64,000 nucleotides of DNA from Octopus vulgaris. Taxonomy: Eukaryota. The DNA lies in assembly GCA_951406725.2 (NCBI GenBank), contig OX597828.1, positions 10,974,001 through 11,038,000 of the forward strand, written 5' to 3'. Of this stretch, positions 24,381 through 61,490 are shown piece after piece (within the stretch, counting starts at the first letter, position 1; every line of letters starts with the position of its first letter). The position numbers were made by a program, and so were the translations under genes. The notes beneath the pieces were generated by a model. The model searched no databases, was not told where the DNA came from, and saw nothing but the letters and a program-made list of their open reading frames with translations.

Positions 24381-24588
24381 TACTCTTTTACTCTTTTACT
24401 TGTTTCAGTCATTTGACTGTGGCAATGCTGGAGCACCGCCTTTAGTCGAGCAAATCGACCCCTGGACTTATTCTTTGGAAGCCTAGTACTTATTCTATCG
24501 GTCTCTTTTGCCGAACCGCTAAGTGACGGGGATTTAAACACCAGCATCGGTTGTCAAGCGATGTTGGGGGGAAAACACAGACGCACAA

Positions 24589-24636
<48 letters not shown>

Positions 24637-24814
24637 ACACATATATATATACGACGGGATTCTTGCATTTCCGTCTACCAAATCCACTCTCAAGGATTTG
24701 GTCGGCCAGAGGCTATAGTAGAAGACACTTGCCCTAGGTGCCACGCAGTGGGACAGAACACGGAACTATGTGGCTGCTCAGCAAGCTAAATACCACACAG
24801 CCACTCCTACGCCT
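24381..24814 (-). mobile_element. Full-length long tRNA-derived SINE with internal microsatellite and LINE-like tail
   Basis: Minus strand: head GGCGTAGGAGTGGCTGTGTGG, CORE-like GGCACCTAGGGCAAGTGTCTTCTACTATAGCC, internal (TA)(TG)n, tail GGCGGTGCTCCAGCATTGCCACAGTCAAATGACTGAAACAAGTAAAAGAG. Confidence 0.9.
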
Positions 24815-31929: not shown

Positions 31930-32065
31930 TTCATTTACTCTTTTACTTGTTTCAGCCATGTGACTGTGGTCATGTTGGTATACCGCCTTTAGTCGAACCG
32001 CTAAGTTACGGGGACGTAAACACACCAGCATCGATTGTCAAGCGATGTTGGGGGGACAAACACAG

Positions 32066-32112
<47 letters not shown>

Positions 32113-32250
32113 CGACGGGCTTCTTTCAGTTTCCGTCTACCAAATCCACTCAGTTGAAGACACTTGCCCAAGGTGTCACGCAGTGTGACTGAACCCGGAA
32201 CCATGTGGTTCGTAAGCAAGCTACTTACCACAGAGCCACTCCTACTCCTC
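31930..32250 (-). mobile_element. Long SINE copy (family of 24381) with internal deletions
   Basis: Same head, internal (CA)(TA)n and tail. Confidence 0.85.
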
Positions 32251-33168: not shown

Positions 33169-33415
33169 TTTCTTTTCTTTCATTCCAGTTCGATGAAATA
33201 TATATCAACAGCGGATTGAAATGTATCGAACACATCTATTACAAGTATTGCTGTAGGTTTGGCTCCCTTTTCTTAGTGTGAGAAAACTTTATCTAAACAA
33301 CTAGGGGATGAAGGGAAACAATGAATCATGTACATATTTAACTTTATCTTGTTGCTCTTTTAGAATAAAAATTAAGTGTTTTCATTAATATCAAGTGAAT
33401 GATAGAGTCAATACT

Positions 33416-33983
33416 TATTTCTTTATTGCCCACAAGGGGCTAAACATAGAGGGACAAACAAGGACAGACAAAGGGGTTAAGTCGATTACATCGACCCCAG
33501 TGCGAAACTGGTACTTAATTTATCGACCCCGAAAGGATGAAAGGCAAAGTCGACCTCGGCGGAATCGGAACTCAGAACGTAACGGCAGACGAAATACCTA
33601 TTTCTTTAAATACCCACAAGGGGCCGAACGCAGAGAGGACAAACAAGGACAGACAAATGGATTAAGTCGATTACATCGACTCCAGTGCTTCACTAGTGCT
33701 TAATTTATCGACCCCGAAAGGATGAAAGGCAAAGTCAACCTCGGCTGAATTTGGACTCAGAACGTAACGGCAAACGAAATACATATTTCTTTACTACCCA
33801 CAAGGGGCCAAACACAGAGAAGACAAACAAGGACAGACAAACGGATTAAGTCTATTACATCGACCCCGAAAGGATGAAAGGCAAAGTCGACCTCGGCGGA
33901 ATTTGAACTTAGAACGTAACGGCAGACAAAATACGGCTACAAATTTCGCCCGACGTGCTAACGTCTCTGCCAGCTGGCCGCCA
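33416..33983 (-). mobile_element. Trimeric SINE array (~185-bp unit)
   Basis: Three bodies with junctions at ~33597 and ~33782 and a single head at ~33940-33983. Confidence 0.9.
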
Positions 33984-34409: not shown

Positions 34410-34824
34410 GGTGGCGAACTGGCAGAAACGCTAGCGCGTCGGGCGAAATACTTAACGGTATTTCGTCTGCCGCTGCGTTCTGAGTTCAAATTCCGCGGAG
34501 GTCGACTTTGCCTTTCATCCTTTCGGGGTCGATTAAATAAGTTCCAGTTACGCACTGGGGTCGACATAATCGACTTAATCCGTTTGTCTGTCCTTGTTTG
34601 TCCTCTCTGTGTTTAGCCCCTTGTGGGTAGTAAAGAAATAGGTATTTCGTCTGTCGTTACGTTTTGAGTTCAAATTCCTCCGAGATCGACTTTGCTTTTC
34701 ATCCTTTCGGGGTCGATAAATAAAGTACCAGTTTCGCACTGGGGTCGATGTAATCGACTTAATCCGTTTGTCTGTCCTTGTTTGTCCTCTCTATGTTTAG
34801 CCCCTTGTGGGTAGTAAAGAAATA
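34410..34824 (+). mobile_element. Dimeric SINE (184-bp unit)
   Basis: GTATTTCGTC at 34458 and 34642; near-identical bodies. Confidence 0.9.
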
Positions 34825-57118: not shown

Positions 57119-57163
<45 letters not shown>

Positions 57164-57167
<4 letters not shown>

Positions 57168-57580
57168 AAGGGTAGAATTAATTAATTAATTAATTAATAA
57201 TTCCACCAAGTAGTGATTCGGTATGTAAAAGCCCATTATCCGTAAACTTAAACAATATTTATTATAATAAGGGTTAGGCAAAAGAATTTGCTTCACCACA
57301 CACCGAACTTTAGAAATAGCAGCTAAAGAACTTAGCTATTTCTTCTACTGTAAGAAACAACTCCCAGACAATATATACTCAAAACGCGTCCACAGTTAAT
57401 CAAATGCCAGGTGAATTTCGTTATTTTCTTTCTCTGCCTACGTGATATGTTTTTGAGTATATATTGTCTGGGAGTTGTTTCTTACAGTAGAAGAAATAGC
57501 TAGTTTCTTTGGCTGCTGTTTCTAAAGTTCGGTGTGTGGTGAAGCAAATTCTTTTGCCTAATCCTTATTATAATAAATAT
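57164..57580 (+). mobile_element. Leader-plus-foldback element A (130-bp arms, 66-bp spacer)
   Basis: 57255-57384 is the reverse complement of 57451-57580 with 5 differences; 91-bp unique leader; TA flanks. Confidence 0.85.
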
Positions 57581-57586
57581 ATATAT

Positions 57587-57860
57587 ATTATAATTTTGGG
57601 TATCTAAGAGATACCACCACGCTGGAAATAGCAGCCAAAACCTGACTCTAAAACCACATTAAATGTTCATACTGCACCAGGAGATGTACGAACATTTAAT
57701 GTGGTTTAGAATCTGGTTTTGGCTGCTATTTCCAGCGTGGTGTTACCCCTTAGATACCCTAAATTATAATTTTAATAATAATTATTACCTTTGAAGGATT
57801 TTATTCCCATGCTGGCCACTTGATAAGATCGATATTTAAATTAACGATTTTATCCTTATT
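57587..57860 (-). mobile_element. Leader-plus-foldback element B (~85-bp arms, 13-bp loop)
   Basis: 57587-57672 pairs with 57686-57770; leader 57771-57860 resembles the leader of A. Confidence 0.8.
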
Positions 57861-57861
57861 T

Positions 57862-57914
57862 CGGTGCCCCAGCATGGCCACAGCTCATGAGCTGAAACTA
57901 GAATCAATCAATCA

Positions 57915-57916
<2 letters not shown>
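57862..57916 (+). mobile_element. Isolated CR1-group LINE/SINE 3' tail
   Basis: CGGTGCCCCAGCATGGCCACAGCTCATGAGCTGAAACTAG(AATC)n matches 6116-6158. Confidence 0.75.
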
Positions 57917-57973
<57 letters not shown>

Positions 57974-58549: not shown

Positions 58550-58808
58550 TACTCTTTTACTTGTTTCAGCCATTTGACAATGTCCATGCTGGAGCACCGC
58601 CTTTAGTCGAGCAAATTTACCCCAGCACTTTGTTAGCCTAGTACTTAATCTATCAGTCTCTTTTGCAGAACCTATAGTTTACGGGGACGTAAACGCAGCA
58701 GCATCGGTTGTCAAGCGATGTTGGGGGGACAAACACAGACATGCAAACACACACACACTCCATGTGGTTCGTAGGCAAGCTACGTACCACACAGCCACTC
58801 CTACGCCT
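58550..58808 (-). mobile_element. Long SINE copy with internal deletion
   Basis: Matches 24381-24814 at both ends. Confidence 0.85.
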
Positions 58809-60307: not shown

Positions 60308-60344
60308 TTTATGTGTGACTGTATATATATATATATATATATAT

Positions 60345-61089
60345 ATAATAAAGGGCATAGAAAAACATTTGCCCATATGCTGAAAAGAGATGCTAAATCG
60401 TCTAACCACTTTAAATCATCACCTAAATTACACACGTGCTGAAATCGAGGGAGTAAGCTAACGAAACTTCATAAAAATGTAGTTATCGCTGGATTGATCA
60501 ATTTCTGGATTAGCCTAATGGCTTTTCGTCGTCAGTAGAGACTACTGAAGTAAATAAATGAAATGTTTATACATACCAACAGGAAAGCAAACGCAAAGCA
60601 ACGGTTACATATAAACACCACAAATACATCCACGTCGAATTTCGTAGCCTACCTCAGCAACGTGTGTATACGGTCTAGTCACTTATGGACTACGCTGACC
60701 GTATACACACATTGCTGAAGTTGGCGACTAAATTCGACGTGGATGTATTGGTGGTATTTATAAGTAATCGTGGATTTGCGTTTGTTTACCAGAGGAAATG
60801 TGTAAATATTTCATTTATTTCCTTCAGTAGGAAAAGCCATTCGGCTAATCCACAAATTGATCAATCCAGGGATCCTTTTTATCCTTTTCCCTTTTATTTT
60901 TTTTTTTGTCATTTGACTGGAGCATCGCCTCTAGTCGACCAAATCGACCCCCAGAACTTATTCTTCGTAAGCCTAGTACATATTCTATCAGTCTCTTTTG
61001 CCGAACTGCTAGGTTACGGGAACGTAAACACACCAGCATTGTTTGTCAAGAGATGGTGGGGCGACATACACCGACACACTAACATATAC

Positions 61090-61120
<31 letters not shown>

Positions 61121-61490
61121 CGACAGGCTTCTTTCAGTTTCCGTCTACCAAATCCACTCACAAGGCTTTGATCGGACCGAGGCTATAGTAGAAGACACTT
61201 GCCCAAGGTACTACATAGTGAGACTGAACCCGGGACCATGTGGTTCGTAAGCAAGCACTTTCTACACACCTGCGCCTATAACTATATATTTATGAATTTT
61301 CATTAGCCTACTCCCTCGATTTCACCACGTGTGTAATTTGGTAATGATTTAAAGTCGTTAGATGATTTAGCGTCTCTTTTCAGCATATAAGCAATATTTT
61401 TCTCTACGCCCTTAATTATAATTATATATATGATTTCACCTTAATAGGTCTGGGTTTTTTTTTAATTTTAACGATTTTATACTTTATTAC
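60345..61490 (-). mobile_element. Leader-plus-foldback element C (~330-bp arms) interrupted by a SINE
   Basis: 60345-60675 pairs with 60697-60873 plus 61278-61420; leader 61421-61490 resembles leader B. Confidence 0.8.
60874..61277 (-). mobile_element. Long SINE nested in foldback C
   Basis: Family of 24381; the foldback arm resumes exactly across it (CCAGGGAT|...|ATAACTAT). Confidence 0.9.

Follow-up and report, generated by a model that had tools for sequence, protein, structure and literature searches.

Truncated head-to-head copies of three non-coding hammerhead families in (TA)n tracts of Octopus vulgaris: probable non-LTR retrozymes

A stretch of 64 kb from the genome of Octopus vulgaris (contig OX597828.1, positions 10,974,001 to 11,038,000, forward strand; hereafter the window) contains three hairpins, A, B and C, which lie at (TA)n microsatellites and consist of a leader followed by an inverted repeat. 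The question raised by this locus is what kind of element leaves such a structure behind. A preliminary description made from the sequence took the hairpins for one undescribed family of non-autonomous elements whose replication makes a foldback at a fixed point, and named two possible relatives, DIRS-type retroelements and inverted Penelope pLTRs. According to the analysis reported here, A, B and C belong to three non-coding families of tandem units with a predicted hammerhead (non-LTR retrozymes); they are truncated copies in head-to-head arrangement and were likely copied into (TA)n by the RT and GIY-YIG endonuclease of an autonomous Penelope-like element (PLE). The probability of this reading is put at about 0.85.

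Hairpins of the window

Alignment of the arms and a regular expression built from the leader motif placed the hairpins and their leaders where they had been described. The expression has three matches in the 64 kb, one at each leader (57165, plus; 57860, minus; 61488, minus). The arms of A (57255-57384 and 57451-57580) are 130 nt long and 96% complementary. Those of B (57580-57652 and 57705-57777) measure 73 nt ungapped at 88%, or about 110-120 nt if gapped. C pairs 60362-60486 with 61278-61401 and 60542-60675 with 60697-60830, about 330 nt per arm, at 84-90%. A and B share GAAATAGCAGC and stand tail to tail with a few TA between them, also as described, and no target site duplication of A, B or C is discernible within (TA)n. 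The features are as follows; unit positions refer to the tandem unit of each family (see below).

57125..57164, no strand: target microsatellite, (TA)20, flanking A on its tailed side
57165..57254, minus (RNA sense is minus here): tail ("leader") of A, unit ~1-88, 3' end of the element RNA, start site 1
57165..57384, minus: tailed copy of A, ending by truncation at unit 216
57379..57580, plus: tail-less inverted copy of A, unit 288 to 89, start site 2 at 57580
57381..57396, plus: 3' remnant of the A hammerhead (AAA-CGCG-TC), from the window sequence against the family alignment
57580..57684, minus: tail-less inverted copy of B, unit ~84-187, adjoining A across a few TA
57677..57860, plus: tailed copy of B (unit 184 to 1) with the tail at 57772-57860; truncation has left it short of the hammerhead
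57918..57971, no strand: (TA)27 near the tailed side of B, with a 57-nt piece of another repeat between
60322..60347, no strand: target microsatellite, (TA)13, where C ends without a tail
60345..60669, minus: tail-less copy of C, unit ~100-428
60482..60545, minus: decayed C hammerhead, outside the intact pattern (row L031 of the family alignment)
60670..61490, plus: tailed copy of C in two pieces (60670-60873 and 61279-61490), tail ~61421-61490
60874..61278, no strand: unrelated dispersed repeat of ~405 nt that contains a TA run and was inserted later into one arm of C

In A the leader arm covers unit 15-216 and the inverted arm unit 89-288; the hairpin "loop" is ordinary unit sequence covered by the longer arm only. 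The hairpins are real and no assembly artefact, a possibility that the preliminary description had raised, since the arms differ by 4-16%, one arm of C carries the later insertion, and dozens of loci are built alike. The inserted repeat, which we take to be SINE-like, has further matches in the window at 24428-24786, 31987-32232 and 58589-58755. The 57-nt piece between the B tail and (TA)27 (57861-57917) is also found beside L028 and L063 and is probably the end of another repeat. Elsewhere in the window, at 33410-33867 and 34457-34824, two inverted tandem arrays of 184-185 nt face each other.

Three families with a tandem unit and a predicted ribozyme

A, B and C are separate families. BLAST between them returns short shared motifs only, so that the single undescribed family gives way to three families of a kind, and a class, already known. 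They may already be catalogued in Dfam, Repbase or the repeat library of PMC13282606 as Penelope, MITE or unknown. In the assembly used (2.8 Gb, 227 contigs), a first look gave 3013 candidates for A, 2170 for B and 535 for C, 40 of which were scored for each. Eighty evenly spaced 10-kb stretches held 7 A-like, 4 B-like and 1 C-like insertion, with 8 microsatellite-only B clusters left out. This density of 12 per 800 kb corresponds to ~42,000 copies genome-wide (Poisson range ~22,000-73,000). A de novo hairpin search of the same 800 kb found 11 TA-flanked inverted pairs, mostly of other families.

In longer copies the leader is followed by arm and body and then by a second leader, which makes the leader a part of the unit. 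The unit of A is 575 nt, with the tail recurring once per unit in L021, L008 and L024. That of C measures 481-501 nt from arm start to arm start at five loci, and that of B ~490-555 nt; L199 runs to the next leader, ~555 nt there with an expanded inner microsatellite. A relative of A, named A2, has a unit of 565 nt and is identical to A at 332 of 543 aligned positions (61%). It includes young copies that are 97-99.7% identical to a unit from L340, the value of 99.7% being that of a unit from the same insertion. At the A2 loci L311-L340 (e.g., G000:C2:29987364-29988342) the hammerhead looks intact, and many copies are 99% identical over tail and arm. Copies exceeding one unit are L021 and several of L141-170 for A, L044, L048, L051, L059 and L060 for C, L199 for B, and L312, L314 and L339 for A2. 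They always continue into the next tail; none was seen to run into a reading frame. Long copies encoding RT and GIY-YIG, for which a search had been proposed, were likewise absent: tblastn with two PLE proteins on 180 A, B and C loci and the window matched separate neighbouring fragments only. The preliminary view of non-autonomous mobile elements with no ORF that are no standard MITE is borne out. Among the sampled loci (at most 40 candidates scored per search) no insertion has two hammerheads in tandem, and the longest arms reach ~1.3-1.4 units.

A type I hammerhead ribozyme is predicted in each unit in longer copies of A, B and C, on the complement of the strand that reads leader first. Tandem unit and hammerhead are visible in longer copies only and had been missed in the preliminary description. 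The hammerheads were spotted by eye and then by a custom pattern, in its strict form CUGANGA, helix II, GAAA, helix III, UH and helix I. Of 30 loci per family, 17 of A, 17 of B and 9 of C show this pattern, against 0 of 450 shuffles; the A and B sets were chosen by the hammerhead region, three matches from other families were dropped, L141/L150 and L171/L188 are arms of single insertions, and L053/L057 (C) are duplicates. Position N7 varies freely while the core stays conserved. In the alignment of C (27 of 28 recovered rows, duplicate removed) 87.7% of the cells pair and 32 cells are changed on both sides (0 of 500 shuffles); seven pairs covary (27 of 500 shuffles), among them three of the six pairs of helix I. 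In A (28 of 29 rows) 94.3% of the cells pair and 20, all in helix II, are changed on both sides; just two pairs covary (358 of 500 shuffles reach that), both in helix II and none in helix I. These cell counts are inflated by the kinship of the sequences. Between A and A2, three of the six helix I pairs are swapped. The A hammerhead has a long helix II and an ACGCGU palindrome, and in those of B and C an additional A separates helix II from GAAA. No hammerhead family was among the 61 matches that an Rfam search of four long copies gave at E<=5; most of these were to miRNA models, at low scores and within microsatellites.

The window holds no intact strict pattern. A retains the remnant at 57381-57396, with a predicted cleavage after 57390 and CACAGT as the 3' strand of helix I, while the CUGANGA half was lost by truncation; B ends before the ribozyme; the hammerhead of C keeps the core elements CUGACGA, GAAA and AUC, with helix I and the G10.1 pair broken. 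Judged from its sequence, an intact hammerhead would divide tandem transcripts into RNAs of one unit each. As the origin of the inner arm ends, truncation at this site of cleavage was considered and rejected, the 5 of 50 A inner ends at unit 270-288 (site 276/277) being too few and inexact. The flanks of L190, L198, L129 and L137 contain hammerhead-like motifs of other families, one of them of a minimal type. The suggestion that the hairpins, if transcribed, are substrates of ADAR finds no consistent A>G trace in genomic copies: A>G versus T>C on the RNA strand amounts to 39:34 for A (p=0.03, uncorrected), 6:11 for A2 and 24:58 for B.

Two start points and the origin of the inverted arm

Arm ends were tabulated for 30 A loci chosen by the leader alone, the window copy included. 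By BLAST, 20 have an inverted arm and 10 are one-armed. In 16 of these 20 the inverted arm has its outer end at unit 84-94, in the other four deeper inside, and it never enters the tail. For B, 23 of 30 loci have an inverted arm, with outer ends at 73-92 in 19 of them; since the apex of the hairpin was part of the B query, arm length is biased in this set. The inner ends of the A arms range from unit 123 to 490. Of the fixed point proposed in the preliminary description the outer end therefore stands and the fold point does not: two fixed start points lie ~90 nt apart, and the fold point is variable. Among 87 loci chosen without the leader (29 per family, one duplicate dropped each, the C set chosen by arm start), 31 are two-armed. 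Twenty-one of these combine a tailed with a tail-less copy, none has two tails and none has two arms from site 2; the remaining ten have one end elsewhere and are unclassifiable, window C, split by its insertion, being among them. A B insertion tailed at both ends (L082) is the exception to this one-tail rule. The "leader" is the "tail" of PLEs, and each arm is a copy truncated on its own; the two meet head to head, one having started from the tail and the other ~90 nt inside.

On the cDNA strand the sequence at either start point is (T)ATAAT..AGG, to which a TATA primer could anneal. The insertions are flanked by (TA)n, as read by eye, with no clear target site duplication, and the arms mostly meet in overlaps of 0-6 nt or short gaps. 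Six of 30 A copies (L202, L216, L221, L223, L226 and L227) have (AAT)n runs at the tail end with 7 to more than 20 repeats, against four in the unit; these may be due to RT stuttering at the start point or to later slippage. A run of this kind stands at site 2 in L013. Many C copies (e.g., L047, L049, L050, L052 and L060) begin at an extra point ~20 nt inside the tail, at a ATTTATAAT patch.

An alternative for this one step, which would leave the class of the elements as it is, is that the inverted arm is made by self-priming (snap-back) of one strand and that later deletions made the arms unequal. Junction palindromes of PLEs were read in this way by Arkhipova et al. 2013 (PMC3846280). Rare variants are indeed common to both arms of a locus: minority bases are shared more within a locus (12/46 in A, 18/94 in B) than between loci (61/675 and 80/1736). 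Such sharing points to one template or one donor, and fits fold-back or gene conversion as well. Arms equal within 10 nt at 4 of 20 A loci and a perfect 25-nt hairpin at a chimeric junction (L166, see below) also speak for self-priming. Against it stand the arm lengths. Of 20 A loci, 11 have an inverted arm more than 10 nt longer than the leader arm (463 versus 159 at the extreme) and five a shorter one; an inverted arm that exceeds the leader arm cannot be a snap-back copy of it. The replication foldback of the preliminary description fails on the same count. Both arms may also exceed one unit in young A2 copies (L312), and self-priming leaves unexplained why the second arm stops at site 2 and how the heterologous pair in L166 arose. 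Snap-back is therefore an unlikely general explanation; it is possible for the equal-armed minority.

Penelope-like elements as the probable source of the enzyme

Published insertions of endonuclease-bearing PLEs comprise truncated partial tandems, an inverted copy and a tail on one side (PMC8557442, PMC3846280). A, B and C match this pattern in 5' truncation, partial tandems, a 5'-truncated inverted copy and a tail at one end only, and further in the bias for (TA)n, the lack of a discernible target site duplication and a hammerhead near the 3' end (PMC4209133, PMC8557442). The inverted Penelope pLTRs suggested in the preliminary description thus fit, and because the pattern is matched the families are filed as non-LTR retrozymes or non-autonomous PLEs. 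They differ from endonuclease-bearing PLEs in having no ORF and a tail of ~90 nt instead of 30-40. For the Anolis PLE protein, modelled as a dimer, cleavage of AT-rich DNA, extension of both strands and initiation at two sites bounding the tail have been reported (PMC11167929). Its start is given there as non-homologous to the cut DNA, whereas the start sites of A, B and C match the TA target over a few bases.

Retrozymes are tandem repeats with hammerheads (Cervera and de la Pena 2020, PMC7229834); hammerheads in the ends of PLEs have been described together with a circle model (PMC4209133), and retrozymes have been regarded as descendants or passengers of PLEs (Li, Clavereau and Pollet 2026, 10.64898/2026.07.22.740005). 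In the latter work mobilisation of animal retrozymes by PLEs is based on co-occurrence and pLTR similarity, and at least two consecutive complete hammerheads define an active retrozyme. Like metazoan non-LTR retrozymes, A, B and C have a non-coding AT-rich tandem unit with one type I hammerhead, co-occur with PLEs and, in A and C, show a palindromic helix III loop. The unit of ~490-575 nt is longer than the 350-390 nt of mussel retrozymes and lies within the 51-972 nt given by Li et al. The long helix II of A and the extra A before GAAA in B and C are differences, as is the occurrence as dispersed, truncated, one- or two-armed insertions (up to ~1.4 units seen) instead of arrays. Another is that a sequence link to a PLE pLTR was not found among the PLEs compared. 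In the literature searched, judging by titles and the beginnings of abstracts, we found no report on octopus retrozymes; a recent repeat annotation of O. vulgaris (PMC13282606) names Penelope-like elements and MITEs, and its main text contains neither "hammerhead" nor "retrozyme".

Elements with RT and GIY-YIG are present in the genome. A GIY-YIG profile gave 6136 candidates, of which 150 were scored and 50 loci read. A frame of 781 aa, matching RVT_1 (just under the cut-off) and GIY-YIG, was found in 12 of 20 larger loci. These elements are labelled "Neptune-type" here, after a description in PMC8557442 of the C-terminal nuclease and the CX4CXXC linker. All this group terminates in (TA)n, and by eye several members carry a motif resembling a hammerhead close to the 3' end; at L133 there is an inverted end, and a tail of 30 nt is present on one side only. 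In the 781-aa family (3' end of the L121 family, L098, L107) the core of the motif reads, by eye, UUGAUAA and not CUGANGA. Within the window, 2093-2413 is a decayed GIY-YIG end of a Neptune-type PLE, 5'-truncated beside (TA)n (tblastn E 2e-16). No sequence common to A, B or C and the autonomous elements was found in 12 PLE stretches and 50 GIY-YIG loci, an incomplete sample of the PLE families, and A-like matches in GIY-YIG loci are separate insertions. A search with the 3' end of the L133 family gave no match, a result of little weight because common words are skipped. A preference for (TA)n is common to A, B, C and Naiad_Obim, Naiad_Ovul and Hydra-1_Obim (PMC8557442, supplement). Five diagnostic 11-12-mers of A-C are absent from the text of that supplement, in which line breaks could hide a match, and by eye neither the 3' ends of three Octopus Naiads nor the listed hammerhead of Hydra-1_Obim match A-C. 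Naiads as the mobilising partner were rejected: in contrast to A, B and C they are described without a canonical hammerhead (PMC8557442), and their 3' ends differ.

Among 260 loci screened, three direct junctions of A, B or A2 with a PLE were seen (L166, L235 and L248). L166 (1334-2020) consists of (TA)n, an A arm from site 2, the 25-nt hairpin, a 3' end of the L133 family with its tail, and (TA)n; the A arm thus stands head to head with a tailed Neptune-type 3' end, with no TA between, and the insertion follows the one-tail rule across two RNAs. In L235 a piece of the B ribozyme is fused to the upstream region of a Neptune-type copy, and in L248 an A2 tail adjoins a truncated Neptune-type end. 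A further 110 loci, including 30 Neptune-type loci of the L235 family and 30 A2 loci, gave no new head-to-head chimera. These junctions are single cases, and later insertions with deletion could also account for them. Two A2 insertions in L248 (7752-8295) stand tail to tail across (TA)25, arranged like A and B of the window; such pairs suggest that one TA tract is used repeatedly. Another family with a leader and an inverted arm occurs at L241:5950-6623, its leader having the AGTGGCC(T)AGCAT motif of B and C.

A, B and C might instead be the 3' ends (pLTR plus tail) of autonomous PLE families outside the sample, their tandem non-coding units being mere partial-tandem pLTRs. The autonomous ends seen here look alike in hammerhead, tail, inverted copy and TA target (L133, L094), and the GIY-YIG loci read are a small part of the candidates. 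As copies longer than one unit enter the next tail and never coding sequence, and the two PLE proteins matched separate neighbouring fragments only, this explanation is improbable. A MITE or foldback DNA transposon with long TIRs and a TA target, its leader a captured flank, would account for long inverted arms, TA flanks, high copy number and the missing ORF; it is very improbable in view of the variable inner truncation, the one-armed copies (10 of 30 A loci), the tandem units, the strand-specific hammerhead and a leader that belongs to the unit, A, B and C having neither symmetric TIRs at both termini nor a uniform length. A non-autonomous DIRS-type tyrosine-recombinase retroelement, the other lead of the preliminary description, shares asymmetric inverted ends without target site duplication and is very improbable in view of the variable truncation, the absence of a fixed length and of any internal complementary region seen, and the hammerhead and tail, which are PLE traits.

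For non-LTR retrozymes mobilised by a PLE, the following course is proposed. The PLE enzyme would nick both strands of a (TA)n tract, and each TATA-3'-OH would anneal to an AUUAU(A) patch in the AU-rich 3' region of the RNA, with site 1, the tail end, serving one primer and site 2 the other. From there the two cDNAs would extend inward along an RNA that is circular or longer than one unit, break off at variable points and then join, often through overlaps of 0-6 nt; joined cDNAs of unequal length would give the asymmetric hairpin, and the hammerhead would process tandem transcripts. More tentatively, the two-armed insertion could be the footprint of a dimer of the Penelope RT/endonuclease, whose halves prime opposite strands of (TA)n at two obligatorily different RNA sites, the tail end and ~90 nt inside. 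Such a dimer might hold two RNAs, as in L166, which would name a Neptune-type family as mobiliser without shared sequence, and might stutter in a telomerase-like manner on the AUU patch of the tail end. The formation of tandem and inverted PLE structures is named an open problem in PMC8557442.

On the reading preferred here, the short hairpins flanked by TA, which number tens of thousands in the genome, would be products of retrozymes and PLEs, which repeat finders could call MITEs or unknown. As the class is known, this is mainly a result for annotation, and the added value is mechanistic. The one-tail rule, the unequal arms, the young A2 copies, the intact 781-aa enzymes and the heterologous insertion make the two-ended mechanism of PLEs, and the question of the partner, testable.
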